From positions 2,744-66,743 of IMG/VR virus record IMGVR_UViG_3300033067_001435: 64,000 bases of DNA, one strand, 5' to 3'. Of this stretch, positions 4,557 to 40,879 are shown piece by piece (positions within the stretch are counted from its first letter, which is position 1; each line of letters begins with the position of its first letter). This stretch comes from a virus (lineage: Duplodnaviria; Caudoviricetes). The translations under genes and the position numbers were made by a program. The notes beneath the pieces were generated by a model. That model ran no database searches. It was not told the DNA's origin and was given only the letters and a program-made list of their open reading frames with translations.

Positions 4557-5207
4557 TTATCGTGCGTACTCCGAATCGTATACATCCTGAGTCAATCCAA
4601 AATCAACTAACACAACTTTGTCTGATCCTTCATCCTTTACAATCCCATAAGAATTTGCTCTTACTAAGTCCCCTACTGGCATATCCATTGATTGCATTAA
4701 TTCACACATTTCATTATAGAACTGATCTTCTTGAATTATGTCGGCTGCTGATTCATCTTCTAATGAGTAACTTGGGCCATATCTACTTGGTTTAACATTT
4801 TCGTAGTAGAACTTGGATAACATTGTACAGTAGTCTTTAAATGAATATCCCATTATGCTTTTAAACTTTGAAGTTGATAACTTACTTGCGAGTTGCATTT
4901 CTACCCATAATCCATTATCATCACTTTCATACACTTTAGCAAATAAATTATCAAAGTAACTATCTTGTCCTAATTGTATCTCAGTATTACATTGGGCAAC
5001 ACCTTTGGAATTTTTTGCTAATTTAAGAACTTTTTCATTATCTATTTTATAAACTATTCTCCCGGAACCACTTATCATCTTAGTTAAGTTTTGATCACAG
5101 TATTTCTGCCTTTGTGAGAATGATTTTAAACTCGCAAATTCTTGAACATCCCAATTTACTGGATAATCCTCTCCAATTATTGATTCATATATTTTCTTTA
5201 ATTTCAT
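4557..5207 (-). CDS. Protein kinase-like protein with MKLK leader
   Basis: GSGRIVY loop, VLKL, NTE, GDLVRAN catalytic loop, VDFG; N-terminus MKLKKIYESIIGE. Confidence 0.7.
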   Translation of the reverse strand: MKLKKIYESIIGEDYPVNWDVQEFASLKSFSQRQKYCDQNLTKMISGSGRIVYKIDNEKVLKLAKNSKGVAQCNTEIQLGQDSYFDNLFAKVYESDDNGLWVEMQLASKLSTSKFKSIMGYSFKDYCTMLSKFYYENVKPSRYGPSYSLEDESAADIIQEDQFYNEMCELMQSMDMPVGDLVRANSYGIVKDEGSDKVVLVDFGLTQDVYDSEYAR

Positions 5208-5656
5208 TAAACACTCCTTAAAAAGTCTTTGAATGCTTGGTCAAATTTTACCCCACGGAACTGCCCACTTCCTATTGCATCATTGTAGTACGAGTCATCT
5301 CCAAGTACATTGGCTCTCATTTGAAAGTAACACTCTAAAAAGTTAACTTGTCCTTTAGTTTGAGCAAAGGCAAGTATCTCAAATTCGAAATTTTCACTGC
5401 CTAACCTTTTAATGTCTTCAAGTAATGGCTTACAACTGCCCATGTAATCCTTCCAGTTGCTCTCTACACGACTTTTTTTCTTTTTAGTTACCTTCACACC
5501 AGTTTTAAGTGTGACTCGCTTAGAAGTCGTTTTAGCGGCTGTTAAATATTTTCTACCAATATACTTTCTCCCATCTGGTCCTGTAATCTTATAGATGAAT
5601 CCAAATGATCCGTCTGGTAATTCGAAGTCTTCACTTCCTTTGTATTTCCAATTCAT
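5207..5656 (-). CDS. GIY-YIG endonuclease
   Basis: GFIYKIT...KYIGRK, Y.GS, FEILAF, LE and YYN motifs. Confidence 0.8.
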   Translation of the reverse strand: MNWKYKGSEDFELPDGSFGFIYKITGPDGRKYIGRKYLTAAKTTSKRVTLKTGVKVTKKKKSRVESNWKDYMGSCKPLLEDIKRLGSENFEFEILAFAQTKGQVNFLECYFQMRANVLGDDSYYNDAIGSGQFRGVKFDQAFKDFLRSV

Positions 5657-5868
5657 TATACTATTTTTAGTTTGTCTAAAATATATTTTATAAGTTCATC
5701 TAATGCCTGTGGTACTGGTGTAGAAATTCCTATTCCTGATTTATCAAAAATATCAGCACCTTTTCTTCTAAAGTCTTTTAAATAAAGTTCTCTTTTCCCC
5801 TCATTTAACGCTTTAGCAGTTTCTTCTCTAATAATTTTAATTAATTTATTCTTTGTTTCTGTTTTCAT
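5656..5868 (-). CDS. Hypothetical protein with KIIREE..LNE motif
   Basis: 70 aa ORF; shared amphipathic motif. Confidence 0.6.
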   Translation of the reverse strand: MKTETKNKLIKIIREETAKALNEGKRELYLKDFRRKGADIFDKSGIGISTPVPQALDELIKYILDKLKIV

Positions 5869-5898
5869 ACTACTTACCTGTCTTTTAAATGTTGAATT

Positions 5899-6399
5899 TT
5901 ATATTTTTAATTTTTTTACTGAACTTATATCTACATCATACAAAAAAGTTGGGTCTAAATAAACTAATTGCCCTTTAATTCTTCCTACATTTTTAGGGTC
6001 CATGTCAGTTGGAAAATATTGTGAATTAGAATTAAACCAATTTTCCAACGCATCAGATTCTTCCCAAGAAATATTTCCTGTTTCTGCTTTTTGAGATATA
6101 ATAACCCACATCTTATTTTTAATATCATCTGCTACTAATTCGTACATTTTATATACTTTTGGTATTGGCAAATATGAATTTTCTTGTCCTATTACAAATC
6201 CTTGAACATCTTTGTCATCATCTGTTATTTTAAGTACCTTCCCTCCACCAATATCAAATACATCACTTCTTGTCCTTCCACCAATAAAAGAATTTACTTT
6301 TACTTTTAATGCTTTTTCTATCCTTGGTATGTATTTATCATAACCTTGTTTAGAATCAAGTTCTTTTATAATGGTTTCATATATTTGTTTTAGTTTCAT
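5899..6399 (-). CDS. Minimal protein kinase-like protein with MKLK leader
   Basis: DVFDIGGGKVLKIT, IPKVY, TDMDPKN (D-x4-N), LVYLDP; leader MKLKQIYETIIKE. Confidence 0.6.
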   Translation of the reverse strand: MKLKQIYETIIKELDSKQGYDKYIPRIEKALKVKVNSFIGGRTRSDVFDIGGGKVLKITDDDKDVQGFVIGQENSYLPIPKVYKMYELVADDIKNKMWVIISQKAETGNISWEESDALENWFNSNSQYFPTDMDPKNVGRIKGQLVYLDPTFLYDVDISSVKKLKI

Positions 6400-6401
6400 A
6401 T

Positions 6402-6938
6402 TTACCTCAAAACAGGAATATTATTAGCGAGTGATCTTGTGCTGTAGAAGGCTGGGTCAAGATATACTAATTCTCCTTTACTGTTAATGCCTACATTTTC
6501 GGATGTTACATCACCGGGAACATACCTTGTGTTTTCTTCAAACCAATTTTGTATATATGTACGTTGTTTTATTGTAGCCTTAATAGGTTTAACCTTTTCC
6601 ACTATTGCAACCCATAGGTCTTTTCCACTAAGTGGACTGGTTATACTATAATTATGTTTGCTTATTTCTGATTGATCTATTTTATACAAACTATAAACTT
6701 TTGGAATTGGGTATGTTGGATTTTTAACTCCAATATATAATCCAGCAGCATCATAATCAGTGGAGGTTATTTTTAGTACCTTATCCCCTAAATCAAATAC
6801 ATCACTCATTGTTCCACTATGTATTGGGGAGCCTACTTTTATATTAAGTTTATCTTCTAAGTATGGTATAAGTTGTGCAAACCCATGTTCTGGATGCCAT
6901 TCTGCTATTATATTTTCTAATATACTCTTTAATTTCAT
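6402..6938 (-). CDS. Minimal protein kinase-like protein, tandem paralogue of 5899-6399
   Basis: SGTMSDVFDLGDKVLKIT, IPKVY, GDVTSEN, LVYLDP; leader MKLKSILENIIAE. Confidence 0.6.
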   Translation of the reverse strand: MKLKSILENIIAEWHPEHGFAQLIPYLEDKLNIKVGSPIHSGTMSDVFDLGDKVLKITSTDYDAAGLYIGVKNPTYPIPKVYSLYKIDQSEISKHNYSITSPLSGKDLWVAIVEKVKPIKATIKQRTYIQNWFEENTRYVPGDVTSENVGINSKGELVYLDPAFYSTRSLANNIPVLR

Positions 6939-9441: not shown

Positions 9442-10830
9442 TTAAGGCTTTTTTTTTTGATAGGAACTTTTGAAGTTTTTTATTTCTTCTCTGATTATTT
9501 TTTTAATCTGTTCTTCGAGTTTAATTTCCTTCTCTTTACCTAAGTCAATTTCCTTTGGTTTTTCAGTATCAGGTGTTTTCTCCCTTGCTTTAGGTTTTGG
9601 AACTTCAACTGTTTTTGGTAATTCATCTTCTGCATTACCACCTTTTTCAACATTAAACCCTTTTGTTAGTGCTGCATGTTCGGCTGCTTCTTTTGTTGGA
9701 AATCCTACATTAGAAATACACTCCTGTTCCCCATTGTTATCAATGTAAAACCAAAACTTTCCATCTTCTTTTTTTATGGTTACGAATACACCCTTAGATA
9801 TAACTTCACTGAGTTTCATCTTAGAATTCTTTTTTGATTCTTTTAATCCAAACTTATCTAAACCTTTTTGAGTTAAATCAATTGCATATTTATCATATCC
9901 AATAGAAGTAACCTTAATTAAACCAGTCTGTTTTTGTATTGCAAAATATTTTTCTGCTTCACTCTTGTTTACATGTAATTTTTCATGTGGTGTACTTCTA
10001 TGTTTATCAACTACAACTTGAATTTTATCTGTTGTATTTTCTTTTATTGTTGATTCTCCAACATTTGTCTTTTTTCTATTTCGAACAGCATCACTATCAT
10101 TATCAAACATCTCAGTATTGTAATATATTATATCATTACCTGTCTGACTTGTCATTCCAACTTTCATTGGTGATATTTTTATTGCTTTAAAGAATGCATT
10201 GTCATTATTTTTTACATTGGAAAATGCTCTACCTTCTTTTTTCCAAGATGTAACCATTTTTAAAATTCGATCAGCATTATTTACAGGAGTTTCTTTAATT
10301 GTTGATTCACCAACACTTGGTTTTGCATTTTTATTCTTCTTAATCGCTTTATTATACATTTTTAGAATGTTTCTTAAAGTTGGTATTCCATCCAATTCCA
10401 TGTTTTCTTTCTTAATAAAGTCAACACTTTTACCGGCTCCTCCCATAGATTGTTCATAAGTTATTTTTAAAATTCCATTCTTATAAACTATTGGTTCATA
10501 TATAACAGGTTCTTCCCAAGTACTTGAGTTATCAACTACTGGAATTGGATCACCATCACTATCTATTGCAGAGGCGATTACTTTATTTATTCCATCAACT
10601 AACCTTTGAATCTTTGGATCGTTTGTTGCTGGTCCTTCTTGTATATTTTTCATTGTTGATTCCTGTACTTTTTTTGGAATTAATTTTTCTACTCTAACTT
10701 TCATAATACCTTTACCGTTTACTGTTGGCAATCCATAGTCATCTAAACCGATCTCTTTGACAGTTACTTTGTGATTCTTAAATTTTCCTGTTAAGATCAC
10801 ATCTCCTATTTCTATTGGAATGTTTATCAC
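9442..10830 (-). CDS. Modular protein with repeated (G)ESTIKE linkers (candidate processed head polyprotein)
   Basis: VQESTMKNIQE, VGESTIKE twice, LKESKK..MKLSE; C-terminal IKKIIREEIK. Confidence 0.65.
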   Translation of the reverse strand: MINIPIEIGDVILTGKFKNHKVTVKEIGLDDYGLPTVNGKGIMKVRVEKLIPKKVQESTMKNIQEGPATNDPKIQRLVDGINKVIASAIDSDGDPIPVVDNSSTWEEPVIYEPIVYKNGILKITYEQSMGGAGKSVDFIKKENMELDGIPTLRNILKMYNKAIKKNKNAKPSVGESTIKETPVNNADRILKMVTSWKKEGRAFSNVKNNDNAFFKAIKISPMKVGMTSQTGNDIIYYNTEMFDNDSDAVRNRKKTNVGESTIKENTTDKIQVVVDKHRSTPHEKLHVNKSEAEKYFAIQKQTGLIKVTSIGYDKYAIDLTQKGLDKFGLKESKKNSKMKLSEVISKGVFVTIKKEDGKFWFYIDNNGEQECISNVGFPTKEAAEHAALTKGFNVEKGGNAEDELPKTVEVPKPKAREKTPDTEKPKEIDLGKEKEIKLEEQIKKIIREEIKNFKSSYQKKKP

Positions 10831-10834
10831 TTAA

Positions 10835-11395
10835 TTACCAATAATTTGTAACAAACTCAAGAAAATTTCTAAGTTCTTTTATTGTCTTTTCTGGTACATC
10901 TTTTGTATGTATTTGTTCTATTTTTAAATATAGATTTTCTCCACCAGTTGTAAACTCTACGATTATTCCTCCGGGACCAGTAACTTTACCTGTCGTTTCT
11001 TGTGGATCATAAGTTCCTCTAAAGCCCTCTTTTATAAAAGCGTCAAGTATACGTTCTGCATTTGAAACCAAATTACTTCTGTCTACTTTTTTTAAGTCTT
11101 TACTACCTTCATTGAACCTTTTATTACTTTCAAACTGTTGAGACCTATCCCTGTCACTTGATACAAAATCCAAACACTTCTGCTTTTCTTGTGAAGATAG
11201 TTTATCCCATTCTTCTTGACCACCAGCATATTCTATAGCATCTTGAAGTTGTTCTCCTGATTGCTCATAACTTGCCTTTCCAGCCATTCTGCCTGCTGAA
11301 ACTGGGTCTTGAAAATCATCATATTCTTTTAAAGATTTTCCAGTTTTTATAACCTTATATAATTCTTTTAGTTTCATGTCTTTTCCTTTATTCAT
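10835..11395 (-). CDS. Hypothetical protein with MKLK leader
   Basis: MKLKELYK at codon 7 (probable start 11377); SLKE and FNEG motifs. Confidence 0.65.
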   Translation of the reverse strand: MNKGKDMKLKELYKVIKTGKSLKEYDDFQDPVSAGRMAGKASYEQSGEQLQDAIEYAGGQEEWDKLSSQEKQKCLDFVSSDRDRSQQFESNKRFNEGSKDLKKVDRSNLVSNAERILDAFIKEGFRGTYDPQETTGKVTGPGGIIVEFTTGGENLYLKIEQIHTKDVPEKTIKELRNFLEFVTNYW

Positions 11396-13007
11396 ACTTT
11401 AAATCAATTTGTACAAGGGATTCTTCTGTGTAAGTTTTAAGTATAGGCTTACTTATCTTAGCCACTGCAAGTAATTCTTTATTTTCATTATATAAACCCA
11501 CTTGTGTAATATATACTTTTGGATTTCCATAGAAATCATCTATAATTTGACCATCACTTCCTGTTTGATAACTTGGATTGTTGGTAAAGTTATATTCTCC
11601 GTTTTTTATTCTAATGAAATACTGTTCTATGTATTCATATTTAACCTTCCTTGCTTGAAATCCTAAAATATCTCCACTTGCATCTGTATAAAGGGCTGAA
11701 CCTGACATTGCTGTGAATAATTTCATAGCATTATCACCCAATACATCACTACCTGTTACTGTCAAAAACGATGATGATAAATCTAACAAATCTGCATCTA
11801 ATAGGATTGTTCCAAGTCTTGGATATGATAACCCATAAACATGTGGCTGTGATTTATTGTACACACCATCCTCAAGGCTTCCAGAGACCATGTAGAACAC
11901 TTCTCCCCCTCTTCCTACAAGATGAGCCTTAGACTCGCTTACAGGTTGATAGAAGCCATTGTAGGCTGTTGTAGACAAATCTGTTTCAAGGTTCAACCTT
12001 GAGTCATCAATAAGACGTAATATATTTCCTGATTGTCCTAATTTGACGTTGGAACCTGTATGAGCATTCCTATTTCCATTGCCAGTTAAGAACTGAGAAC
12101 CTGATAGTGAATGTAAATTAATTTCTACATTTCCTTCATCAAGTCTATCTCCAAATCTATCTCTATAAACATCAATTGCATAGAAGTGCTGAATTTCCTT
12201 TGCTCCAATTTTAAACCTTCGTTCTGTTGGATTTAAACACAAACTTCTATATTGACCATATACTGCATTACTTGGCGACATCCAATCATATCCGCCCAAA
12301 TCCCTACTTCCGCTTCCATCATCGTGACCATAAGCAATCGAAAAATGTTTTGCAGGAGCACAATGTGAATCACAATTGGTTTGATAAATTGTTCTTCTAT
12401 AACTAGAACTTGTTTCTGTGCTACAAGTAAAGAAATTTATCATATTACCAATTACACTTCCTGTTGCATCAAGCCATATACCATAATAAATTTTATTTAC
12501 TTGGGTTGGTAATTTATCATCTGTAGTCAGTTTTGTATAAACTCTACCAGAACTAATCTCTATTGGTGGAGTTGGTGGAACTGGAACAGGAGGTATAACA
12601 GGAGTTGGTGGAGGTATAACTATTACAGGTGGAGGAGGTGGTGGAGGAACAGTTGGTGTTGGAGGTGGTGGAATTGGTTGTGTTAATTCTAATACACAAT
12701 CATCCCAACTATTGTCTTGAACCAAATCTTCGCTTTCAATTCTAAATACATATTGGTTTCCAACTGTTTGAGTTGGTGTGACTCTCATAGAAGAATTTAA
12801 CCATAGTCCATTAAAATCGTAATCTTCGTTAGCCTGTATATTAATTGTCCAGTTTTGACCTGTAACTAAAACAGGAGACGTTGATACATCTCCAATGTAG
12901 TTACCATTACCAGTAGTTGCGCCACTAATAATGAACCTTTGTGGAAGAGATAATGGATTTCTAACCACAACCCTAACTGTCCAATTTCCTTGTATGTTTA
13001 ATGGCAT
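11388..13007 (-). CDS. Virion structural protein: lectin-like N-domain, poly-Pro stalk, core paralogous to 13618-15072
   Basis: ESEDLVQDNSWDDCVL motif, PPPP linker, C-terminal VGLYNENKELLAVAKISKP. Confidence 0.75.
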   Translation of the reverse strand: MPLNIQGNWTVRVVVRNPLSLPQRFIISGATTGNGNYIGDVSTSPVLVTGQNWTINIQANEDYDFNGLWLNSSMRVTPTQTVGNQYVFRIESEDLVQDNSWDDCVLELTQPIPPPPTPTVPPPPPPPVIVIPPPTPVIPPVPVPPTPPIEISSGRVYTKLTTDDKLPTQVNKIYYGIWLDATGSVIGNMINFFTCSTETSSSYRRTIYQTNCDSHCAPAKHFSIAYGHDDGSGSRDLGGYDWMSPSNAVYGQYRSLCLNPTERRFKIGAKEIQHFYAIDVYRDRFGDRLDEGNVEINLHSLSGSQFLTGNGNRNAHTGSNVKLGQSGNILRLIDDSRLNLETDLSTTAYNGFYQPVSESKAHLVGRGGEVFYMVSGSLEDGVYNKSQPHVYGLSYPRLGTILLDADLLDLSSSFLTVTGSDVLGDNAMKLFTAMSGSALYTDASGDILGFQARKVKYEYIEQYFIRIKNGEYNFTNNPSYQTGSDGQIIDDFYGNPKVYITQVGLYNENKELLAVAKISKPILKTYTEESLVQIDLKYE

Positions 13008-13603
13008 TATTTACTTTTAATATCTTTTAATATGTTTTTTAATTTCATATAATTCTCTTCAATTGCTTTATTTTTCAAAGCATCTACTCCCATTTTTACA
13101 TATCTTTGATAAGTGTTACTATCAACTGTTACATTTTTTCCTGAATTACTATCTGGTTCTCCAACAGGGCTTCCCCATATTTTCCACCCATTTTTTAATT
13201 TTTTAATAACAACCCTTTGTTCCTGTCCTTTAACAGTAAAAATATCATCAAAGTGATCTAAATTGTTTGTCAACGAAATTAAAAAACAATGTACAAAAAC
13301 ATTACCTGATGTTGCTGAATCTTTTAAAGATGTCATTTCTATATTCCTATTACTTTCGTTTATATGAGTTAATATACTAAATACTTGCCTTGCTATACTT
13401 ATAGGTATTTTAGGACGTAACTCATAAATTCCTTTTGGCTTCCCCTTTAAACCTTTCTTAGTCCAATCTGGGGATGTATTTGTAATACTATATTCCTTAT
13501 TGTTGTGATAATACATTAACTTAGGAGTGTATATTACCCAATCTAAATCATCAATAGGAAGTTTACTATGAATCACGTATAATGTTTTATCTTTATATCT
13601 CAT
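13007..13603 (-). CDS. Hypothetical protein
   Basis: 198 aa; ends with MKLKNILKDIK. Confidence 0.6.
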   Translation of the reverse strand: MRYKDKTLYVIHSKLPIDDLDWVIYTPKLMYYHNNKEYSITNTSPDWTKKGLKGKPKGIYELRPKIPISIARQVFSILTHINESNRNIEMTSLKDSATSGNVFVHCFLISLTNNLDHFDDIFTVKGQEQRVVIKKLKNGWKIWGSPVGEPDSNSGKNVTVDSNTYQRYVKMGVDALKNKAIEENYMKLKNILKDIKSK

Positions 13604-15096: not shown

Positions 15097-15414
15097 TCAA
15101 TATTTTTTTGGTGCTTCGTATCCATATAGAGTATATAATCCATCTAATGCATCTATCAATGTATTATACTTTGATAATCCACCATTGGTAACTTGTGCAT
15201 TAACTTTTCCTTGCCACTTGTACAACTTTACCTCTTGTCTTCTCTTAGGAATGTTTACAACAAGTTGATCATTTCCATACGTATCTACATCAGTACTAAA
15301 CTTAAAATTAGTATATTTCTTCTTATATGCATTGAGACTAATTGGTGTTATGTCAAATTCCTCTGACTCCTTTAACTTCCCATACATACTCTCATATAAT
15401 AATTTTAGTTTCAT
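15097..15414 (-). CDS. Hypothetical protein with MKLK leader
   Basis: MKLKLLYESMYGKLKE. Confidence 0.6.
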   Translation of the reverse strand: MKLKLLYESMYGKLKESEEFDITPISLNAYKKKYTNFKFSTDVDTYGNDQLVVNIPKRRQEVKLYKWQGKVNAQVTNGGLSKYNTLIDALDGLYTLYGYEAPKKY

Positions 15415-16749: not shown

Positions 16750-17676
16750 TTATGTTTTATTTAAAATAATATTCTGTTTGAACTCTTTAACTTCTCTATC
16801 AAACAAATATTTAAACTCTTTATTATTGTGTATTTTTGAATGACATGACCTGCACACAAATATAAGATTATCAAAACTATCATTAGTTTTATTTTCATCT
16901 ATGTGGTGTAAGCATAATATTTTAGTATCATCTTTACATTTAAAACACACTCCGCTCTGTTGTTCCCTTAAAATCTTCCTATACTCCTTATCATAGAACT
17001 TCTCTGAATATGGAATATCTTTATTGGGATTAAACTTATGATGATTCTCCCCAGACCTATTTCTAATTATTTCATTGGTATTTTTATTAAGCCCTTTACT
17101 CCAAGACACCGATTCTCCTGATGCAAATTTATCTAATTTTGTTTTAGAAGACTTAGTACCAACTCTTTTGTAAATATCCTCTAACTCTTCTTTTGATTTT
17201 ATTTTAGTATAGTGGGTGTATGTTCCTTCTTTTGCTTGTCTTCTTTTAGTTTCTGTCATTTTAATAACCCGTCTGTCTCTTTCCTCAGTAGACATACTCT
17301 TCATAAATTTAGACCTTCTATCCCGTTCCTCCAAAGTAAAGATATGAGGATTCTCAGATAAACTCTTTTTAACAGATTTTGATAGTTTAGTGAGAGCATT
17401 TTTATACTCTTCTGAATTTTTATCATAAACTGTTTGCCAAGTGCCACCACCAGAATGTCCTCTTACATATTCGTTTACTTCGTAACCATTCACTTTTAGA
17501 GATTTACCACATCCACAAGCACATGTTGGAATCACTCCATCAAGTAAATATTTTATTGTGTAATCTGATTTAGTAATACCGTGTTCAGATTGAATGTGTT
17601 GTGTAAAAGCGCCTACTGAGTTGTGATCTTTTCCGCAAACTTTACAGATATAATCTGTTAATAAATTCTTTGCCAT
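16750..17676 (-). CDS. Free-standing HNH homing endonuclease with N-terminal C2H2 zinc finger
   Basis: CKVC...HIQSEH, CACGCG, C-terminal CFKC...LHHIDENKTNDSFDNLIFVCRSCHSKIH. Confidence 0.85.
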   Translation of the reverse strand: MAKNLLTDYICKVCGKDHNSVGAFTQHIQSEHGITKSDYTIKYLLDGVIPTCACGCGKSLKVNGYEVNEYVRGHSGGGTWQTVYDKNSEEYKNALTKLSKSVKKSLSENPHIFTLEERDRRSKFMKSMSTEERDRRVIKMTETKRRQAKEGTYTHYTKIKSKEELEDIYKRVGTKSSKTKLDKFASGESVSWSKGLNKNTNEIIRNRSGENHHKFNPNKDIPYSEKFYDKEYRKILREQQSGVCFKCKDDTKILCLHHIDENKTNDSFDNLIFVCRSCHSKIHNNKEFKYLFDREVKEFKQNIILNKT

Positions 17677-23441: not shown

Positions 23442-23723
23442 TTATTTTGGATTCGCTTTCCAGATAGCATTTTTATCAAATGATTTAACAAATGACTTCT
23501 CGTTTCTTGGATTTAACAAGGCTGATACAAAATCCTGTCCATTTATTCTCTTAGAGCCTATTGCTTGCATTAAATCAATATACTCTATTTGATTTCTATC
23601 ACAAAAATCTTTTACTGCTTTTGGATTTGTGCCAGTTAACTGAGCAATTTTATCTATTTGTAATTGCTCATTTCCTTCTTTGATTACTTTTTCAACAAGT
23701 ATTCTAAGTCTTGATTTTTTCAT
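23442..23723 (-). CDS. Hypothetical protein with KSRLRILVEKVIKE leader
   Basis: 93 aa. Confidence 0.6.
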   Translation of the reverse strand: MKKSRLRILVEKVIKEGNEQLQIDKIAQLTGTNPKAVKDFCDRNQIEYIDLMQAIGSKRINGQDFVSALLNPRNEKSFVKSFDKNAIWKANPK

Positions 23724-24606: not shown

Positions 24607-25423
24607 TATTTAGTGCGGCTATTGCTGCTTCTGCTGCTGCTTGAGCAGCGTTTGCCTGTGCTATGGCTGCCTGACTTGCCGCTTCTGCTGCTTGTGCTTG
24701 TGCTTTTGCAGCATCTGCTGCCGCTTTATCTGCTGCTGCTTGAGCCTTAACTGTATCTATTTGCTGTTGTGCTGCTGCCGTTGCTGCACTTGCTATTGCT
24801 GCTCCTGATTTTACATTTGCATCCAACTGCTTTAATAACTCTGAGTTTGTTTTATCACTCATGTCCGCATTCCAAGCAGTTGATTTATCTGGTATTATAT
24901 CAGTTGCCTCTTCTATCTGTTCACATTGTGATTCTGGAATTACTCTAACAGACAATAAAGTTATTCCACGTTGAGCCAACATTACTTCAAGTGTTTTGTA
25001 GTTTGGTATCTTTTTCTTCTTACCATCTTCTATTATCCAGTATTGATAATTTTCTTTTGGTTGTGGAAGGGAATCTTTATCAAAACATCTAAATATTGAA
25101 CCTTCAATTAATGTAAATTTATCTGGTTCAATTACTTGAGGTGGAATAAAATATGAAAAGGTTGTATCAGTATAGTCCTTTAAGTTTTGATCAGTTACAA
25201 ATACCTTTTTTGGTATGTAGTTTAAGTAAACCTTATCTTTGTTTGTTGGTAATTCATATGCGCCCGCTCCATTCCTCTTTGACAAGGTGTAATTCCTTGC
25301 ATTTATACCATCCTGAGAAATAAAGTCATAAGTTTGGCCTTCAATAGGTATAACATATTGAAGTAGTTTGGCATTTGACGTAAATGCATCAAGATATGTT
25401 ATGTCATTTATTATTGTTTTCAA
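24602..25423 (-). CDS. Hypothetical virion-associated protein with Ala/Gln-rich C-terminal coiled coil
   Basis: 273 aa; AAAQQQ...AAEAAIAALNS tail. Confidence 0.65.
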   Translation of the reverse strand: MKTIINDITYLDAFTSNAKLLQYVIPIEGQTYDFISQDGINARNYTLSKRNGAGAYELPTNKDKVYLNYIPKKVFVTDQNLKDYTDTTFSYFIPPQVIEPDKFTLIEGSIFRCFDKDSLPQPKENYQYWIIEDGKKKKIPNYKTLEVMLAQRGITLLSVRVIPESQCEQIEEATDIIPDKSTAWNADMSDKTNSELLKQLDANVKSGAAIASAATAAAQQQIDTVKAQAAADKAAADAAKAQAQAAEAASQAAIAQANAAQAAAEAAIAALNS

Positions 25424-26178
25424 TTAACTTCCTCACAATAGTTCCAGTCTTTGAATTTCGGGTTTTTAGAACTAATACGAAGACTTAAAGTGGTATAGGG
25501 TATTTTTAATTGTGAGGATGCATCTTTTCTGGATGTATAAAATACTCCATTTATAACACAAGGTTTTCTATTTGGGTTATTTAGTGATATTTTAATCTTA
25601 GTTACTTCTTCCCTTTTTCGTTTAAACATATGACTATCCTCTCCACATCTTTTCCCTTTGCTGGCCTCACTTATCTTCTGTTTGGTTTTCTCTAAATGCC
25701 TTTTTCCAAATAAATAATGCTTTTCCCCACGAGTTTTTCCCTTCAAAGATTTACTTTGGTTTATTTTCGTTTCTACTGAGGAAGTTTTTCCAAAATTATG
25801 ATTTTTTTCTCCTAACTGTGCTTCACTCATCTTTTTCTTAGTTTCTTCTGAATGGGTACATTCATTATCGCCACCAGTTCTTGTGTTGTAGCATTCTTCA
25901 AGATTAACCATTTCTAAGGTAACTACATCTCTTTCGTGATCAGAGGCTTCTTTACGGGTTGGATAATCTGCTATTATTTCTTTGGTAAAATTACTTTTTC
26001 CGTACTTTTTAATAGCCTTTATCATAGTTCGACCACTTCCTAAATAACCATCTTCAAGGTTATTTGTTGAGTGAATTCCGTAGTAGTATTTACCGTTTAA
26101 AGTATTAGTTGTTTTATAAAAACAATTGTGCTTCTTTTCCATATTACCCTCTTTGTATTCTAAATATGTAATTTTCAT
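25420..26178 (-). CDS. GIY-YIG (Seg-like) homing endonuclease with NUMOD3 repeats
   Basis: CFYKTTNTLNGKYYYGIH...YLGSG, YNTRTGG, HSEETKKKMSEA...NHNFGK; probable start MEKK 26142. Confidence 0.85.
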   Translation of the reverse strand: MKITYLEYKEGNMEKKHNCFYKTTNTLNGKYYYGIHSTNNLEDGYLGSGRTMIKAIKKYGKSNFTKEIIADYPTRKEASDHERDVVTLEMVNLEECYNTRTGGDNECTHSEETKKKMSEAQLGEKNHNFGKTSSVETKINQSKSLKGKTRGEKHYLFGKRHLEKTKQKISEASKGKRCGEDSHMFKRKREEVTKIKISLNNPNRKPCVINGVFYTSRKDASSQLKIPYTTLSLRISSKNPKFKDWNYCEEVN

Positions 26179-27271
26179 CTACTACTCTAATAGTATCGCC
26201 CCCATCAAAAATTGATTTAAAGACAACTTTATAGTACCGCTCCGGCATAAGTGAGGAGCAATCGAGTTGAAAATAGTTGCCCTGCGCATCACAGTTTATT
26301 TTTGTGCCTATATCGTCATAATATACGATAATTTCATCAGTTTCTGTATCTTGTATTTGAAAGTAGGAACCTGTTGGCAATCGCTTTGAAATTAAATAGT
26401 TGCTTGAGGTTGCGTAAGTTTGTTGTGGATAACGATCCCTAACTCCTATTCGAACCTTTGGCTTTTCCTGCTCTTTATATCCTTCTCTAAGGTTCTTTAA
26501 ATACAAGACAAAATCATCGCTGCTAACCTCAGTAAATGAGCCTGTTCCTGATAAATCTGAATTGTCCCAAACTACTTCAAGTTTTGGTAAGAATATTGTA
26601 TGACTTTCAACACTAAAGAATTTAATGCTTCCAAAAACAGAAGTATCTTGTTCAATGTTGTCACTCAGTTTTACCATGAATCCATTATTCTGAATTGAAC
26701 CTGATAACCATCTTTTTACAATATCGGTTACATCCATTCTAACATCTGGCAATTCATGGTTGAAACTTTGACTGCAAACTGAACTGGTATACCAATTTCC
26801 TCCACCGGGAATAGTTCCAAATGATCCTGTAGATGTTGAATTATAAGAACTTGTTGACCAAATTTTTGTATCCAGTTTAGAATCTCTATATTTCCAACTC
26901 ACTCCATCTGTTATAATTGGGTTGTTATTAAAGAACCCTCTTCCATTTGACCATGAACCTGATACTGGATAAGCATATAATGTATAATTTACAGGTAACG
27001 CAATGGCTTCTGTTGCTCTTAAATTAAGATAGAACCTTGCATTAGAATTTATTTTTCCACTTACTACTGATGATGATATGTCAGTTAAATCAAATTGAAT
27101 CAATACCCTACTATTATATGTTGCAGCATAATAAACAGTACTGTCCCCTTCTAATGATGGAGAGCCTACTGCTTCTTTGCTAATCTCAAGTATTTGATCA
27201 ACTCCTGTGTTCTGTTCATTTGCTTGAGAATACAAGGTTGAATCTTTTAGTGGGTATATTGTTTTGTACAT
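26144..27271 (-). CDS. Virion structural protein, DNRLRE-like domain
   Basis: DSTLYS, RVLIQFDL, MDVTDIVKRWLSGSIQNNGFMVK, PKLEVVW. Confidence 0.7.
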   Translation of the reverse strand: MYKTIYPLKDSTLYSQANEQNTGVDQILEISKEAVGSPSLEGDSTVYYAATYNSRVLIQFDLTDISSSVVSGKINSNARFYLNLRATEAIALPVNYTLYAYPVSGSWSNGRGFFNNNPIITDGVSWKYRDSKLDTKIWSTSSYNSTSTGSFGTIPGGGNWYTSSVCSQSFNHELPDVRMDVTDIVKRWLSGSIQNNGFMVKLSDNIEQDTSVFGSIKFFSVESHTIFLPKLEVVWDNSDLSGTGSFTEVSSDDFVLYLKNLREGYKEQEKPKVRIGVRDRYPQQTYATSSNYLISKRLPTGSYFQIQDTETDEIIVYYDDIGTKINCDAQGNYFQLDCSSLMPERYYKVVFKSIFDGGDTIRVVDENYIFRIQRG

Positions 27272-27660
27272 TACTGATTATCCATGTATTTTTCTACTTT
27301 TTTATATACTTCAATTGCCTTATCTCTTGGAAGGTTTATCCTGATTACTTTTATCTCTTCATCTGGTTGTATTACTGCGTAAGCCAATTGTCTGTGGTGT
27401 CCATCAATTATATAATTATCCGAAGAAATTACAATTAAGGGAAGGTTCGCTCCTTTGGTTATATCTCTTATAATAGACATAACCTTTTTCTTATTTACCT
27501 GCTTTTGAGAATGCTTTAATTGCTTTGGTAAAACAGTATCTATTTGAACAGGTATTTTTGCTTTCTTTAATATTGTAAATGCATCAACTAAATCAGAACC
27601 TTTTATCTGTGGCATGTCACTTCTATCATAAATGCTTTCTAAAATATCTTTTAATTTCAT
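27271..27660 (-). CDS. ParB/Sulfiredoxin-like protein with MKLK leader
   Basis: LKHSQ, LIVISSDNYIIDGHHR; MKLKDILES. Confidence 0.75.
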   Translation of the reverse strand: MKLKDILESIYDRSDMPQIKGSDLVDAFTILKKAKIPVQIDTVLPKQLKHSQKQVNKKKVMSIIRDITKGANLPLIVISSDNYIIDGHHRQLAYAVIQPDEEIKVIRINLPRDKAIEVYKKVEKYMDNQ

Positions 27661-27947
27661 ATAGTACCCTCTTCAATAAAATAAGTAAACATATCCCAAG
27701 AATCGTTTGTTAGTGCTGATGACTTATCTAAATTATCTTCCCAAGGAATGAACCTTAAATTCTTTATATTTGCAATTATGTGTGGGTCTATATTATTCTT
27801 AAAACCCTGTCTAATTGAATATATGTGATCTAATTGATATGCTCCTACCTTACCTGACTTACCCCTGTATTTATAATTTTCTAATAAATGTACTGGCTGT
27901 CGGTTTGTTTCCTTCTTTACTATCCTATTGTATTCTTTGTATGTCAT
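27657..27947 (-). CDS. Small stand-alone HNH-like domain protein
   Basis: YQLDHIYSI...NLRFIPWEDNLDK. Confidence 0.6.
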   Translation of the reverse strand: MTYKEYNRIVKKETNRQPVHLLENYKYRGKSGKVGAYQLDHIYSIRQGFKNNIDPHIIANIKNLRFIPWEDNLDKSSALTNDSWDMFTYFIEEGTI

Positions 27948-29830
27948 ATTTCTACTGCTCGAATCAAAATATCACGTTTAGGAAAAGGGATTCTAAATAA
28001 ACTTGGATCAAGACTTGGATATAATATATCCCCTCTTGTTGCTGTTTTTAAATCATACTGGTTTCCACTATATCCTGAATTCTGATCTACTTTATTTATA
28101 AATTCTATTTTTTGTATTGATTGTACTCCATCTACTTTATCCAATTCATTTCTAATTGAAGATAAAAGTATTGGTTGGTTTATTTGTAGTTTTTCTGGCT
28201 TAAATAGTTCAATTAACTTTTCACTACATTTTAATAGAACCTCGTTGCTATTTTCATTTGGCCTAACAATTACGTCCACATTAATTCCCAAATCTATCAA
28301 AAATGGGTCTTTGATGTTTATTGCATCAGTCATAAGCCTATACTGCTTTAAATACTGCCTCAAGTTCTCTTTAATTGCTTCATTTGCTGGGATTGGGTTT
28401 CCAAGACTATCAGCAGCAAGGATGTAAAGGTTCAACGCAAATGGATTTGGTGTTCTCTCTTCGTTCCACTGTCCTAATTGAAAATCCTGTTCAACGTATG
28501 CCTTTGATATTCCGCCATATTTAGCAGGCATCGCAAAACATCTAAGTATATAATCTTCCTTAGTAACTGCCCTGTTTTGTGCAGCAAAGTTTGCCATTGC
28601 TTCCTGACGAATGTTATCCAGAGCCTTTCTATTTTGTCCGCCGAATGCTGGATAAGGATTATTTATTGACAACGAATTCTTTATGGTTTGAAGAACTGTA
28701 GAATCTGTTGAATCAATTGGGTCAATTATTTCGCTGGTTGTAATATCATTTATAGTGTTCGATGAAACATTATCTACAATACCATTTGCTACTGCATATT
28801 GAACTGTTAATATTGTATTGGCTGGAACACTCCCATATGTTCTTGTATATAAGAAGTTCATTGGATCAATGCTCACATCTACAACCCTTTCAAAATAATT
28901 AAGCCCTAATCCTACATTCATTGGATTTGGAACTATTTCCTCATCTGCTTCACTACTCAATCCTGAACCAAATTGTATTTCAGTAAAATCATCTTTCCTT
29001 AACCTTGATACGAACCTTCTTTCTGTTTGTTTATAGCAAAGTATATATGGAACTGAACTTCTATACTGGCTTAGTTTTGGATCGTTATATGGAAGGTTTC
29101 TAACTGATATTGGGACTAAATCTTGTGCCAAATACGGTACTTCATACCAAGTATTATTATCACTATCTGTAACCTTTACAACTTCTGTTACATTATCTTC
29201 ATCCAGTACAATTTTATCGTAAATTTTTGGATCAGAGAATTGGAATGTTTTGGTTTTTAATTCACCACTAACTGCTCGAACCTTTTTCTTCAATAGATAA
29301 TACTCTATTGCTCCATCACCAGTCACAGAATAAACTGTAATTGTAGTTGGATCAAAACTTGAACTGAATCTGAAATCTATTGCATCTTTAGTGTAAAATG
29401 GAACTGCATCTTTATCAGATGTAGCCACTTGCATATTCTCCTTTATATAGAGACCATACCTAAAATCTGGTTTTGTATTTGTACCAGAGCCAACTGATGG
29501 AACCAATTGAAACACATCTAAATCTACTGATGCCGGGACGACTGTTTTTGCCTTATATCCCATCCCCTGAGAAAGGTTGTATAGATTTATTCTCTCTTCT
29601 ACATTTGATAGTAGAGATTCTTGCAGATTTACGTCAGCAAAGAAGGCTAATGCATCGCCAACATAAGAAGCCATCTCGATCATCATCGTTCCCGGAGAAG
29701 CCTCATTAAAATCTGAAACTGTATTAGGAAAATATTGCTTTGCATGATTTATCAAAGCAATACGAAATTCTGCGAAATCCTTATTTACATAACTTACGTT
29801 TCTTTTATATCTACTATTAAGCATTGCCAT
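27944..29830 (-). CDS. Baseplate wedge subunit (T4 gp6/baseplate J-like)
   Basis: KDFAEFR, SDFNEASPG, EIQFGSG, AFGGQ, QNRAVTKEDY. Confidence 0.85.
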   Translation of the reverse strand: MAMLNSRYKRNVSYVNKDFAEFRIALINHAKQYFPNTVSDFNEASPGTMMIEMASYVGDALAFFADVNLQESLLSNVEERINLYNLSQGMGYKAKTVVPASVDLDVFQLVPSVGSGTNTKPDFRYGLYIKENMQVATSDKDAVPFYTKDAIDFRFSSSFDPTTITVYSVTGDGAIEYYLLKKKVRAVSGELKTKTFQFSDPKIYDKIVLDEDNVTEVVKVTDSDNNTWYEVPYLAQDLVPISVRNLPYNDPKLSQYRSSVPYILCYKQTERRFVSRLRKDDFTEIQFGSGLSSEADEEIVPNPMNVGLGLNYFERVVDVSIDPMNFLYTRTYGSVPANTILTVQYAVANGIVDNVSSNTINDITTSEIIDPIDSTDSTVLQTIKNSLSINNPYPAFGGQNRKALDNIRQEAMANFAAQNRAVTKEDYILRCFAMPAKYGGISKAYVEQDFQLGQWNEERTPNPFALNLYILAADSLGNPIPANEAIKENLRQYLKQYRLMTDAINIKDPFLIDLGINVDVIVRPNENSNEVLLKCSEKLIELFKPEKLQINQPILLSSIRNELDKVDGVQSIQKIEFINKVDQNSGYSGNQYDLKTATRGDILYPSLDPSLFRIPFPKRDILIRAVEI

Positions 29831-30845
29831 GACTATACTCTCCCTTCTTTATTTTAAGTCTAACCACATCCACGCTAACCCCCAATTCTACTGATAACTC
29901 TTTTATAGTACCATAAACTCGTCCAGTTACATGGTCTATAACTTTTTTAGCATTTGGGTTTTTAGAACCTGATTTATCCCACCTACCTACATTAGTGTAG
30001 TCTTTTTTTAATCCCTTTAAGTGGTCGGTATTTTCTAACTTTCGTCCCCTTAGAGTATTTCCTATTTTTACTCCTGCGCACTTTTTGCATACACAACTTA
30101 AATTATGACTATCTAATACACTGCTCCTTGTTGTGTAGTACATCACTGTGTTACAATTTGGGCAGTGTCTTGAAAATTTTTTATTATTAGTTTCTGAAAC
30201 CCTACTAACTCCGTCAGGTAGTGGCCACCTTTTTAACGAGATTACTCTATTTATTTCTTTTATTTTCATCCTTCTATCCTCAGATACTGTGTATTTTTTA
30301 CCGTAGTTTGGATTTCCACTACCTTTCATTCTTTCAGAGTGTTTTTTGTTTTGTTGCTCACTGTGTATTCTGTTAGATTGTATGCTACTTATTTTATTTT
30401 TAACTTCCTCAGTATGTTTTTTACCATACATAGGGTTTCCCTCACCAATCATAGCATCCTTTGTATATTCATTGGCTGATTTCCAGAAATCTAATAAATA
30501 AGTTTCAATATTCTCTCCAAAAAGCCTTTTCAAGGTTCTTCTTGCGACTCTTCTTATTAAGTTCCCAGATGAAATATTATACTTATACTCGTTTGATTTT
30601 CTATCAAAACACTCAGCAAGTATAATATGTGCTTTAAAATGGTCTTCGGGTGTAAGTATGATAAAATTATCTGACTCATTACTCCCGCCCATGAAGACTG
30701 GGAGTATGTGATGCTTGTGTTTGGCATACGACTCTATGTCCTTTTGCCTGCACTCAAGCAAAAAGTCTTCATAAGGCTTTAGCCTATCAACATCATAACC
30801 GTTTTTTTGAAAATGCACTAACAAGGTACTTCCTCCAATTTCCAT
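29817..30845 (-). CDS. Free-standing HNH homing endonuclease with NUMOD3 and C-terminal HTH
   Basis: HKHHILPVFMGGSNESDNFIILTPEDHFKAH, GEGNPMYGKKHTEE, KVIDHVTGRVYGTIKE. Confidence 0.85.
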   Translation of the reverse strand: MEIGGSTLLVHFQKNGYDVDRLKPYEDFLLECRQKDIESYAKHKHHILPVFMGGSNESDNFIILTPEDHFKAHIILAECFDRKSNEYKYNISSGNLIRRVARRTLKRLFGENIETYLLDFWKSANEYTKDAMIGEGNPMYGKKHTEEVKNKISSIQSNRIHSEQQNKKHSERMKGSGNPNYGKKYTVSEDRRMKIKEINRVISLKRWPLPDGVSRVSETNNKKFSRHCPNCNTVMYYTTRSSVLDSHNLSCVCKKCAGVKIGNTLRGRKLENTDHLKGLKKDYTNVGRWDKSGSKNPNAKKVIDHVTGRVYGTIKELSVELGVSVDVVRLKIKKGEYSHGNA

Positions 30846-38010: not shown

Positions 38011-38080
38011 TAGGTAGGGCTTAAAAAATGAGTTAACGATATGTTAAACATTAAAAAACTGCCCAATTTTAGGTATAAAA

Positions 38081-38124
38081 TACAAAAACCATCCACATAA
38101 TTAAACATGGATGGTTCTTTTTTT
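38081..38124. terminator. Bidirectional intrinsic terminator
   Basis: aaccatcca/tggatggtt stem flanked by A- and T-tracts. Confidence 0.75.
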
Positions 38125-38136
38125 GATGATTTGGTA

Positions 38137-38391: not shown

Positions 38392-38402
38392 ATTGAAAAT
38401 AT

Positions 38403-39131
38403 TTAGTCATTATAACTGCCAATATGGACAGTCAACTTGTAAATATCTTCTAATAATGTATAATCTAATGTAAACCTAACATCTTTAGGTAAATGTAAAA
38501 ACAATTCCTCAAAAGGATAATCTAAAAACCATTCATTTCCATCCATATTTCTCGCTAAAATGAAAATAACTGCTGTTTTTGTAGTAGAAATTGCGTGATT
38601 TAAAGTTTTGTTAAAATATTCCCATTTATCAAAACCATGAATTTCATTTAAGGTTCCAATGCAAATTGTATAGTCAGTGACTATGTTTGAATTGAAAAAA
38701 TCTCCATGAATTAAATTAATATCAGGAGATTTTTGTTTGCCTACTGATATTAAACTTCCTTTAGTTTCAAATCCAAAATATTGAACATCTTTTGAATAAG
38801 GTAGTGATCTATAAAAATCACCTCTACCTGCTCCAAAGTCTTTAATAGAGTAATTTGAATAAGGCAAACCTTTTAGAACCCAATCATAAATCTGCTTTTG
38901 CATTTCAAGGTCTGGATAACCAACAACCTCTGGATCATTCATTAGATAGTCCGGCAACTGTAACTGATTATTTATATTGTCAACTGGTAATGCTTCATCT
39001 AATCCATCATCTTCATAAGGTTCATTATTTTCGATAGTTAAACCATCTGTAGTTAGTTTAGTATAATACTTTACCTTTTCACTTGATTTAACCATTTCTT
39101 TTGTATCTTGTAATAAATCTTCTAATTTCAT
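38403..39131 (-). CDS. Class I SAM-dependent methyltransferase
   Basis: IKDFGAGRGDF, YFGFE, IHGDF, DYTICIGTLN. Confidence 0.75.
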   Translation of the reverse strand: MKLEDLLQDTKEMVKSSEKVKYYTKLTTDGLTIENNEPYEDDGLDEALPVDNINNQLQLPDYLMNDPEVVGYPDLEMQKQIYDWVLKGLPYSNYSIKDFGAGRGDFYRSLPYSKDVQYFGFETKGSLISVGKQKSPDINLIHGDFFNSNIVTDYTICIGTLNEIHGFDKWEYFNKTLNHAISTTKTAVIFILARNMDGNEWFLDYPFEELFLHLPKDVRFTLDYTLLEDIYKLTVHIGSYND

Positions 39132-39331
39132 TTCTTATTTAATTTTTCAGATAATTCAATTAATATATAACAAGGCTTTTCAATGTCATCAGTCAAGTTT
39201 TCCATTAAATGACCTCGTTCTAATTGAACATTGTAAAATGTTATCCCTTTCCGTTTCCATTTTCTCACTATTTGGCCCACTTCTTTGCTTCCTCTGTTGA
39301 AAACAAGAGCCGTCATATTTACTTTTAACAT
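39128..39331 (-). CDS. Hypothetical protein
   Basis: 67 aa, SH3-like pattern. Confidence 0.5.
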   Translation of the reverse strand: MLKVNMTALVFNRGSKEVGQIVRKWKRKGITFYNVQLERGHLMENLTDDIEKPCYILIELSEKLNKK

Positions 39332-39344
39332 ATTATTTTTATTT

Positions 39345-40280
39345 TTAAAGTGATAGTATCATGTCCAGAACAAGTGGTTGGGGACTCAAATCCCACTTCT
39401 CATAGTTGCCCCATTTGTTCTTAGGTGATACATTTGTATGACAAAATAACCCTTTAACCTTTCCATCCCTAATAGCAGGATCAAAATCAAATGCAGTGAA
39501 AGGGTCTTTTGAATTTTTTATTCTTTCTTTTAGTCCTTTGGTAACATCAATCCCTGTTTCATTGGCAATTTTAAGGATTAAGAACTTCATTGAGTGTATT
39601 TGATTTTCAGAGTACTTGTGATAGTATCTAAAACCCCTAAAATCCCGCTTTAAATCAACGATCTCCTTTGGGTTGACTATAACTCCCTTTCTAACTACAT
39701 TGCCCTTAGAATCAAGAATAGGATATGTTCTAAAATAGTTACCATCTTTTACCAGCCAACCAAAGTTACAAAGTTCAATTCCTATACTTGCCCTGTGTAC
39801 AACTGTATTTCCAATCCCAATGTGCCAACCATAATTTTTATATGAAGGCATACATTGTACAATTTCACCATCATACTTTCCATCTAATGTTTGTATGTTT
39901 ACTCCACCAATTACATACTCAGTTCCTACTTTACCTCTTGAATCTGTTTCCCAGTCATTTACAACTCCTAAAGGATTATTCCATCCGGCTGTGTGGTGAA
40001 GAAACAACCAATGCTTAGTTTCTTCTGTAGTGAAATATTCATCAGATTTTAATAAATACTTTTTAATAATATAGGTATTTTCCCTTAAATCACTTGAAAT
40101 AAAACCATCAGTTCCTTCTTTATATAATAATTCTTTTGTTGTATTATCTACAACACCTGATACTGGTAAATTATTTTTCAATTGATAGTTCCTTACAGCA
40201 GCCTCTGTGAATTCATCATACTGTCCTGTTTGAGGAAGTTTAAGAGTTTCTTGTACTTTCTTTATTTCTTCTATATTCAT
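39345..40280 (-). CDS. Endolysin: peptidoglycan-binding domain plus Amidase_2 N-acetylmuramoyl-L-alanine amidase
   Basis: TGQYDEFTEAAVRNYQ...SGVVD; FLHHTAG, SIGIELCN, FCHTNV...KWD. Confidence 0.88.
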   Translation of the reverse strand: MNIEEIKKVQETLKLPQTGQYDEFTEAAVRNYQLKNNLPVSGVVDNTTKELLYKEGTDGFISSDLRENTYIIKKYLLKSDEYFTTEETKHWLFLHHTAGWNNPLGVVNDWETDSRGKVGTEYVIGGVNIQTLDGKYDGEIVQCMPSYKNYGWHIGIGNTVVHRASIGIELCNFGWLVKDGNYFRTYPILDSKGNVVRKGVIVNPKEIVDLKRDFRGFRYYHKYSENQIHSMKFLILKIANETGIDVTKGLKERIKNSKDPFTAFDFDPAIRDGKVKGLFCHTNVSPKNKWGNYEKWDLSPQPLVLDMILSL

Positions 40281-40879
40281 ATTAAATATTTTATATTTCG
40301 AACCTTGAAAAGTTGTTTGCTTACATTACTGGTTGGCTCTAATATTCCTTCAAATACAAAAGGAATATTAGGTTTCTTTTTCATCCGGGAATATGCTTGA
40401 GCAGTTTTATGTAAACTTATGCCGTTACCTATTTTATCCATGCTACCATCTTTAGAAGCAAGATAAACACCATCTGATTCCAATCCCACAATAACAGCAT
40501 CTTGATTATAATTACGTGCAACACCAACACAAAATTTAACAAAATCTTCCCTCTTCATTTCAGTTGGCTTTGTAAATAATACACTTTCTTCAATAGAATG
40601 GGTTAGTTGTTCCGGCGTGGCATCTCTATAATCAATTCCATCAGGTGCTTCTTGCCAGTGACCTATTAATTGATACCCACCCATTTTTTGTGAGTTTAGA
40701 GAACCTAACATCTCTCTATTTAATGCTCTATTTTGTTGTAATGTATTAGAATATCTAAATGCAGTGGCTATGCAAAAGTCCTTGCCCTTTGCCATAGACA
40801 ATAACCTTGATAGTCCAGCCTCTGATATTTGCCCAACTCTACCAACCGTTATTTCATCATATATTTGTTTTAGTTTCAA
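40277..40879 (-). CDS. Conserved phage protein with MKLK leader
   Basis: MKLKQIYDEI...ISEAGLSRL, ATAFR, GHWQE, YNQDAV; TTG start. Confidence 0.65.
   Translation of the reverse strand: MKLKQIYDEITVGRVGQISEAGLSRLLSMAKGKDFCIATAFRYSNTLQQNRALNREMLGSLNSQKMGGYQLIGHWQEAPDGIDYRDATPEQLTHSIEESVLFTKPTEMKREDFVKFCVGVARNYNQDAVIVGLESDGVYLASKDGSMDKIGNGISLHKTAQAYSRMKKKPNIPFVFEGILEPTSNVSKQLFKVRNIKYLI

Follow-up and report, generated by a model that had tools for sequence, protein, structure and literature searches.

Eight genes share an N-terminal leader

We analysed a stretch of 64,000 nucleotides (the window) from a Caudoviricetes virus, positions 2,744 to 66,743 of the IMG/VR record IMGVR_UViG_3300033067_001435. 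The record is a fragment, rated 36% complete by CheckV, and represents about 36% of a T4-like myovirus genome of ~185 kb. The 66.7-kb contig has a guanine-cytosine (GC) content of about 32-33%, and every gene in the window lies on the minus strand. Eight genes open with a leader of the consensus MKLK-x-(I/L)-(Y/L)-(E/D/K), or with the variant MKLEDLL, and at least six different cargo types follow this tag within the window. The fuller form of the leader, MKLK-x-(I/L)-(Y/L)-E-x-(I/L)-(I/L)-x-E, covers ~13 residues. An earlier note on this DNA had claimed a shared N-terminal leader for these genes, and all eight N-termini were found where it placed them, on the minus strand. The eight genes, identified below by their lower coordinate, and two tentative relatives are as follows (AF2, AlphaFold2; SAM, S-adenosylmethionine; HMM, hidden Markov model).

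4557..5207, minus strand: leader MKLKKIYESIIGE (codons 5169-5207) and a predicted minimal protein-kinase-like enzyme (N-terminus read, AF2, Foldseek)
5899..6399, minus strand: leader MKLKQIYETIIKE and a protein of 166 aa that may be a minimal kinase and is a paralogue of 6402 (BLAST, 41% identity to 6402)
6402..6938, minus strand: leader MKLKSILENIIAE and a 178-aa paralogue of 5899 (BLAST; weak hhalign match to the 4557 family)
10835..11377, minus strand: leader MKLKELYKVIKTGKSLKE and a 180-aa acidic protein (start at the internal ATG 11377)
15097..15414, minus strand: leader MKLKLLYESMYGKLKE and a 105-aa protein (N-terminus read)
27271..27660, minus strand: leader MKLKDILESIYDRSD / MKLKDILESIYD and a ParB/Srx-like domain (phrog_2859; sub-threshold PF08857)
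38403..39131, minus strand: variant tag MKLEDLL (MKLEDLLQD), an acidic variable linker and a SAM-dependent methyltransferase-like core (homologues; leader HMM 14 bits)
40277..40879, minus strand: leader MKLKQIYDEITV...GQISE↓AG / MKLKQIYDEITVGRVGQISE, TTG start, and a predicted SAM lyase with the T3 SAMase-type anti-restriction fold (PF23780, AF2, fold search)
23442..23723, minus strand: tentative weak leader relative MKKSRLRILVEKVIKE... on a 93-aa protein (LVE and IKE sites in the first 16 residues)
5656..5868, minus strand: tentative weak leader relative MKTETKNKLIKIIREE... on a 70-aa protein between kinase genes (N-terminus)

The N-terminus at 23442..23723 falls below the leader HMM cut-off of 8 bits, and we therefore regard it as tentative.

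The tag is shared beyond chance, and at the level of the peptide. A motif scan of all start codons of the contig returned eight matches on open reading frames (ORFs) of at least 60 aa and none in each of 30 Markov-shuffled genomes. When N-terminal 12-mers were compared all against all with BLOSUM scores, leader pairs reached 25-43 over a background of about 21 or less. A leader HMM, a census the earlier note had suggested, gave 8 N-terminal matches on the contig and 0 among internal-window decoys. The leader codons vary synonymously (TTA/CTA, AAA/AAG, GAA/GAG), and the DNA upstream of the leader genes is unrelated between copies. This indicates that selection acts on the peptide and not on a DNA repeat.

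A ninth scan match, at 13048, was rejected as a separate leader, being the in-frame C-terminal tail of ORF 13007-13603 (198 aa). The final 13 residues of this ORF before its stop, MKLKNILKDIKSK, mimic the leader, and the ATG of the next gene overlaps them. The tail may be a remnant of a leader or may have arisen by chance.

The cargo proteins

The leader claimed for 10835 is present, with a corrected start: the longest ORF begins at 11395 (MNKGKD...), and the leader begins six codons into it, at an internal ATG (11377) preceded by a Shine-Dalgarno (SD)-like AAGGA of its own. BLAST comparison of the cargo proteins revealed only 5899 and 6402 as clear paralogues (41% identity), and the other pairs share nothing. 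The earlier description of the cargo as unrelated is thus right for most pairs and fails for 5899/6402; in addition, hhalign gives 6402 a weak match to the kinase family of 4557, covering the glycine loop and VLK (probability 18%). On the basis of this weak alignment, the three "kinases" (4557, 5899 and 6402) may share a fold. Searches of Pfam, PHROG and NCBIfam returned no family match for 5899, 10835 and 15097, and NCBIfam none for any of the eight leader proteins.

The remaining four proteins could be assigned with varying strength. The AF2 model of 4557 has a mean predicted local distance difference test (pLDDT) score of 89.7, and all Foldseek matches with E < 1e-3 are kinase-like (APH(2''), MTR kinase, ULK1, Bud32). 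K62 (in VLK) and D202-x-G204 are invariant in 62 homologues, and there is a weak profile match to SteC. From the model, 4557 is predicted to have a protein-kinase-like fold with the beta3 lysine and a DFG-type motif. The 40277 protein matches PF23780 at 31.1 bits, over the 28-bit cut-off. Its AF2 model (pLDDT 82.9) has its best fold matches in the T3 SAM lyase (8bb1/7ock) and Svi3-3, with a template modelling (TM) score of 0.57 on the target and a root-mean-square deviation of 2.7 Å relative to the T3 enzyme. Profile and model both identify 40277 as a predicted SAM lyase. For the ParB/Srx-like domain of 27271, the PF08857 (ParBc_2) match scores 18.1 bits (E 0.003), under the gathering threshold of 23.6 bits, and the sole further pointer to ParB is a match to phrog_2859 (E 1e-20). 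The methyltransferase reading of 38403 comes from its homologues, some of which carry PF13847/PF13649. Their core, ...PDYLxNDPEVVGYPD...DFGAGRGD, with the DFGAGRGD motif, follows a linker of 10-150 aa.

A common N-terminus could also result from descent or recombination, the bearers being diverged paralogues or the leader DNA the joint of a cassette exchange. The 5899/6402 pair, perhaps with 4557 as distant kin, and the position of leader genes in plastic regions with homing endonucleases fit such an origin. Against this, the cargo folds and families differ (kinase-like, SAM lyase, ParB-like and methyltransferase here, with ADP-ribosyltransferase (ART), NUDIX and GNAT in relatives), and the leader DNA is not conserved beyond the needs of the peptide. 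We consider this explanation very improbable.

Separability of tag and cargo

Structure prediction and comparison of homologues indicate that the tag can be separated from the folded part of the cargo. The AF2 model of 4557 drops under a pLDDT of 50 nowhere but in residues 1-14. In the model of 40277, only the leader helix (3-12) is loose (residues 1-12, pLDDT about 53), and residues 17-30 join the fold.

Leaderless orthologues are present for the ParB-like, kinase, SAM-lyase and methyltransferase cargos. Close orthologues of 27271 keep the tag, one of 55% identity (locus L128) starts directly at the MPQI core, and more distant ones have divergent tags. The 6402 orthologue at locus L149 retains its leader. 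The 120 homologues of the kinase share a core that opens with (E/D)YPxSW. The variable helical leader before it is 0-30 residues long and ends in (L/I/M)-x-(E/D), and 3 of the 120 are leaderless. The SAM lyase family (71 homologues) has a core starting (A/S)(G/S)LSRL that comes after (I/L/V)-x-E; most members begin MKLK, MKIK or MKFK, and 47 homologues all have E20. About 55 methyltransferase homologues carry a near-invariant M(K/R)LEDLL, followed by a hypervariable linker. The earlier picture of a leader grafted onto its cargo therefore needs qualification: the tag is portable, and yet the kinase, SAM-lyase and methyltransferase families travel with it across many phages, losing it occasionally.

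Genomic setting

All eight leader genes are in the part of the window below 41 kb, where their neighbours are baseplate, tail and endolysin genes (8/52 genes, compared to 0/50 above; p 0.006). The motif is thus not equally common in early genes, a possibility raised by the earlier note, as none of the 50 genes outside the virion half carries it. The baseplate and tail genes show synteny with the Microcystis phage Mel-JY01 (190 kb), in its region 156-186 kb. Homologues of the leader genes are absent from Mel-JY01; these genes are inserted between the conserved virion genes and adjoin homing endonucleases. Neighbouring features that bear on this arrangement are listed here.

5207..5656, minus strand: SegE-type GIY-YIG homing endonuclease in the kinase cluster, a plastic region (PF19835, 105 bits)
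27944..29830, minus strand: gp6-like baseplate wedge protein, the anchor for finding relatives (phrog_219, phrog_10646; 47% identity to Mel-JY01)
39345..40280, minus strand: endolysin (PG_binding_1 and Amidase_2) between the SAM-lyase and methyltransferase cargo genes

The 27271 gene is directly downstream of the baseplate wedge gene. Homing-endonuclease-type genes occur at four places among the baseplate and tail genes (25420-26178, 29817-30845, 16750-17676 and 5207-5656, minus strand): two are of the phrog_314/655 type, one is HNH and one is the SegE GIY-YIG gene.

Within the window, SD-like sites (GGAG, GAGG, AGGA or AAGG) precede 19 of the 52 genes below 41 kb and 2 of the 50 above (p 4e-5). 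There appear to be two styles of translation initiation, one for the virion half and one for the early half, and the SD-type start of the virion half is found at five of the eight leader genes. The T4 late promoter TATAAATA was not enriched in a scan of the contig, and the promoter class of the leader genes could therefore not be read from it.

Relatives of the phage and their tag dialects

Further away, this phage is related to the Flavobacterium "immuto" phages and to an uncultured phage of 484 kb. A megablast search of 11 kb against cultured phages gave no match, and we found no paper on Mel-JY01 in the literature. A Peptidase_S77 prohead protease is encoded by Mel-JY01, by both complete relatives (G022, 172 kb with terminal repeats, and G024, 181 kb) and in 6 of 10 related records. 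In G022 the protease is encoded at C1:7201-7827 and a gp22-like scaffold protein at 10537-11481. Mel-JY01 also has a T4-like capsid protein, and a gp23-like one is encoded by every complete relative. The kinase family is found in many contigs of 140-390 kb, and S77 accompanies it in 8/8 complete records and 15/23 overall, the misses being confined to incomplete records.

To describe the tag across the lineage, leaders of the pattern MKL-xx-(I/L/M/V)-(Y/L/F) were collected from loci around two conserved anchors and from three fully fetched relatives. This gave 42 distinct leaders on 28 BLAST-distinct cargo families. The cargo in related contigs comprises protein-kinase-like, SAM lyase, ParB-like, methyltransferase, Zeta-toxin/AAA_33 kinase, NUDIX, GNAT and DnaJ proteins, together with three separate ART-PolyVal ADP-ribosyltransferase families. 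N-terminal matches to the leader HMM at 8 bits or above were distributed as follows.

This contig: 8
G021: 7
G020: 5
G022: 4
Mel-JY01: 1

Internal-window decoys gave 0 or 1 matches. Two Mel-JY01 proteins, encoded at 60276-60926 and 62056-62718, start MIKL(K/M)SL.... The census is partly circular, as the training set came from the same genomes, though new members were found too.

At the kinase loci, the leader dialect of the kinase is often common to its unrelated neighbours (MKIIITESQ..., MKIGxxY.E, MK(D/E)xI(K/R)xILRE). A permutation test of this sharing (12.3 compared to 10.4 +/- 0.9, p 0.02) lends it modest support. In the complete relative G022, leader-type genes cluster directly after the capsid gene.

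The conservation of the tag also bears on the idea that it has no sorting role and is an N-terminal element of expression or stability, either an AT-rich structure-free translation start or a stability signal, common to late accessory genes. MK-rich, AT-rich starts are indeed common in AT-rich phages, and lone MKLK-x-LLE N-termini occur in many unrelated viral contigs, where S77 was found in only 3 of the 8 complete ones. Such an element would, however, not readily explain a conserved stretch of 13 residues that has a helical period and ends in Glu although its codons vary synonymously, nor the invariance of M(K/R)LEDLL beside a hypervariable linker in the methyltransferase homologues. Most late genes lack the leader, and dialects differ between phages. 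We consider this idea quite unlikely.

A tag of this kind might alternatively be the recognition leader of a modifying enzyme, as in ribosomally synthesized and post-translationally modified peptides, with a radical-SAM maturase as an example. Of five records, namely the contig, two complete relatives and two further relatives, none had a Radical_SAM gene, whereas the search gave a match in each of 14 control genomes. This largely refutes a leader recognised by a radical-SAM enzyme, and leaves the modifying-enzyme explanation extremely improbable.

Some further observations concern the relatives and similar N-termini elsewhere. The closest large relative, G020 (IMGVR_UViG_3300010938_000012, 99 kb), has 85-91% amino-acid identity in shared genes and a GC content of 42.5%, compared to 33% for the contig of the window. 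In G021 (L264:1626-3353; C1:41626-43353), and also in G023, the ORF of the Peptidase_S77 prohead protease spans 575-587 aa and has an in-frame interruption of ~370 residues with LAGLIDADG_3, which from its sequence is a predicted intein-like insertion. A DNA pattern scan of IMG/VR gave mostly one match per genome, or paralogue arrays, and did not define the lineage. Families of 125-133 aa starting MKLKKLLES... or MKLKKLLEG... recur in many apparently marine viral contigs (L014, L018, L068, L090, L117 and others), and leucine-rich-repeat-like paralogue arrays in IMG/VR loci start MKLKQLFES...; neither group had a match in a cultured phage.

Leader chemistry and the protease motif

The leaders have the predicted character of an amphipathic N-terminal helix. 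Their helical hydrophobic moment is 0.45, compared to 0.28 for other N-termini (p 0.0006), and that of the T4 capsid-targeting sequence (CTS) is likewise 0.45. An (I/L/V/M)-x-E motif is present within residues 4-20 of 39 of the 42 lineage leaders, compared to 27% of 1910 other N-termini (p 9e-19). Among the leaders of the window, seven of eight have an L/I-X-E-type protease motif, 38403 being the exception. We also aligned T4 gp23, taken from the T4 record, with the capsid proteins of the relatives. The T4 site LTE65↓A falls on ISE↓A, LRE↓A and VTE↓A, which makes a T4-like (I/L/V)-x-E specificity plausible for the protease of this lineage.

A 462-aa ORF at 9442..10830 (minus strand) is polyprotein-like, its modules being joined by a VGESTIKE linker, which occurs twice, and by a GLKE-S...MKLSEVI joint. 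Family searches with this ORF gave no match. Judging from these joints, an (I/L)xE protease might also cut the product of this ORF.

A putative capsid-targeting sequence

Taken together, the indirect tests all agree with the portable capsid-targeting tag proposed in the earlier note, whose interpretation they support in part, and we favour as probable the interpretation that the leader is a lineage-specific CTS, functionally like that of T4 and unlike it in sequence. The helix would dock accessory enzymes that are made late to the scaffold core of the T4-like prohead during its assembly, after which the Peptidase_S77 prohead protease would probably clip the leader at an (I/L/V)-x-E site. The freed enzymes would remain in the head with the DNA and would enter the host at infection, ahead of any phage gene expression. 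The cargo enzymes would then be pre-made effectors of host take-over and anti-defence. All four steps, docking, cleavage, packaging and injection, are inferred. The cargo types have counterparts in proteins known or predicted to be injected, namely ADP-ribosyltransferase (T4 Alt), ParB (P1 DdrB) and anti-restriction proteins (PMC5512222). We found no paper describing a CTS-type tag in this lineage.

Several observations weigh against a capsid-targeting role. The leader HMM scored T4 N-termini at 3.9 bits or less and did not single out IPII or IPIII, so the resemblance to the T4 CTS is physical and not homologous. The 38403 leader and two other lineage leaders are without a nearby (I/L/V/M)-x-E, and (I/L)-x-E is in any case short and common in Glu/Ile/Leu-rich proteins, as the 27% background indicates. 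The sole site in 27271 is ILE at residues 6-8, and a cut there would leave part of the tag attached. In 40277, the inclusion of residues 17-30 in the predicted fold makes cleavage between E20 and A21 doubtful. Head genes and the Peptidase_S77 protease were not found on this 36%-complete contig; both are therefore extrapolated from relatives. No cultured phage was found to carry these cargo genes. Finally, the leader genes lie among tail and baseplate genes and not among head genes.

This last point, the interleaving with baseplate and tail-fibre genes, would also suit an address or assembly signal for another destination, such as the inside of the tail or baseplate, the cell membrane or a compartment made by the phage, or a helix that docks the proteins to a common chaperone or partner. 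Amphipathic N-terminal helices are also able to bind membranes or partner proteins, and the 38403 tag without a protease motif is consistent with such a role. On the other side, the enrichment of (I/L/V/M)-x-E and the strict co-occurrence with S77 in complete genomes point to head maturation, as does the clustering of leader-type genes just after the capsid gene of G022. We know of no precedent for an N-terminal tag that loads enzymes into T4-type tails. Another destination thus has a small chance of being the right one.

If the leader is a CTS, a broader and more speculative proposal can be made, which we regard as possible but tentative. Each lineage of large or jumbo phages with an S77 protease may have its own dialect of the address tag, co-evolving with the scaffold, and so possess a plug-and-play library of single-domain injected effectors, in effect unbundled polyvalent proteins. 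In the present phage, pre-packaged SAM lyase and kinases would act before phage transcription, disarming SAM-dependent defences (type I/III restriction and the BREX system) at DNA entry. Injected proteins act first in infection and are otherwise invisible in genomes; a tag of this kind would provide a sequence-only readout of the injected-protein arsenal in uncultured T4-like and jumbo phages. It would also mean that enzymes known as early-expressed counter-defences (SAM lyase), and host-modifying kinases and ADP-ribosyltransferases, can be delivered ready-made. Likewise, a second capsid-loading tag, unrelated in sequence to that of T4, would open T4-style protein packaging to phages with different hosts, which are probably Bacteroidota or cyanobacteria.

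Comparison with known systems

The closest parallel is with the T4 internal proteins IPI, IPII, IPIII and Alt, which are targeted by the CTS and processed by gp21. The T-even internal proteins are diverse defence proteins that have only the CTS in common (PMC3012670). Cleavage by gp21 occurs after L/I-X-E, and the N-terminal 10 residues of IPIII are enough for packaging (PMC9026906); in the T4 record, IPII and IPIII begin MKTYQEFIAE↓A. As in T4, a short amphipathic tag starting with MK and ending in I/L-x-E precedes otherwise unrelated proteins, the cargo is of an anti-defence or host-modifying kind, and the relatives of this phage have an S77 protease and a gp23-like capsid. The tag described here nevertheless differs from MKTYQEFIAE in sequence, is longer (about 13 residues) and often has two candidate sites. 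The T4 internal proteins are small and basic, whereas the cargo here is mostly recognisable enzymes. Its genes are found at separate places in the baseplate, tail and lysis module.

Head-internal proteins of other phages show partial similarities. In the giant phages phiKZ, 201phi2-1 and SPN3US, a diverged gp21-type protease cleaves many head-internal proteins behind a Glu (PMC9026906). These phages differ in the S/A-X-E motif, in having no single shared leader and in that the internal proteins are largely paralogous families. The P1 Dar proteins (DarA, DarB, DdrB, Hdf) are head-packaged, injected anti-restriction enzymes, including a ParB-like protein and a methylase (PMC5512222), but their incorporation is hierarchical and partner-dependent, with no common short N-terminal tag.

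With respect to the cargo, the polyvalent proteins of phages and conjugative elements, proposed to be injected with the DNA (Iyer, Burroughs, Anand, de Souza, Aravind 2017, PMC5512222), contain the same repertoire of ART-PolyVal, ParB/Srx, Zeta-toxin kinase, methylase, NUDIX and GNAT domains. They combine many domains per chain, whereas here the tagged proteins are separate and small, and only ORF 9442-10830 is polyprotein-like. The T3/T7 SAM lyase (gp0.3-type "SAMase") and Svi3-3 share their fold and Pfam family with 40277. Known SAM lyases are early-expressed, leaderless proteins of about 150 aa, whereas 40277 has an N-terminal extension of ~20 residues and is encoded beside the endolysin.

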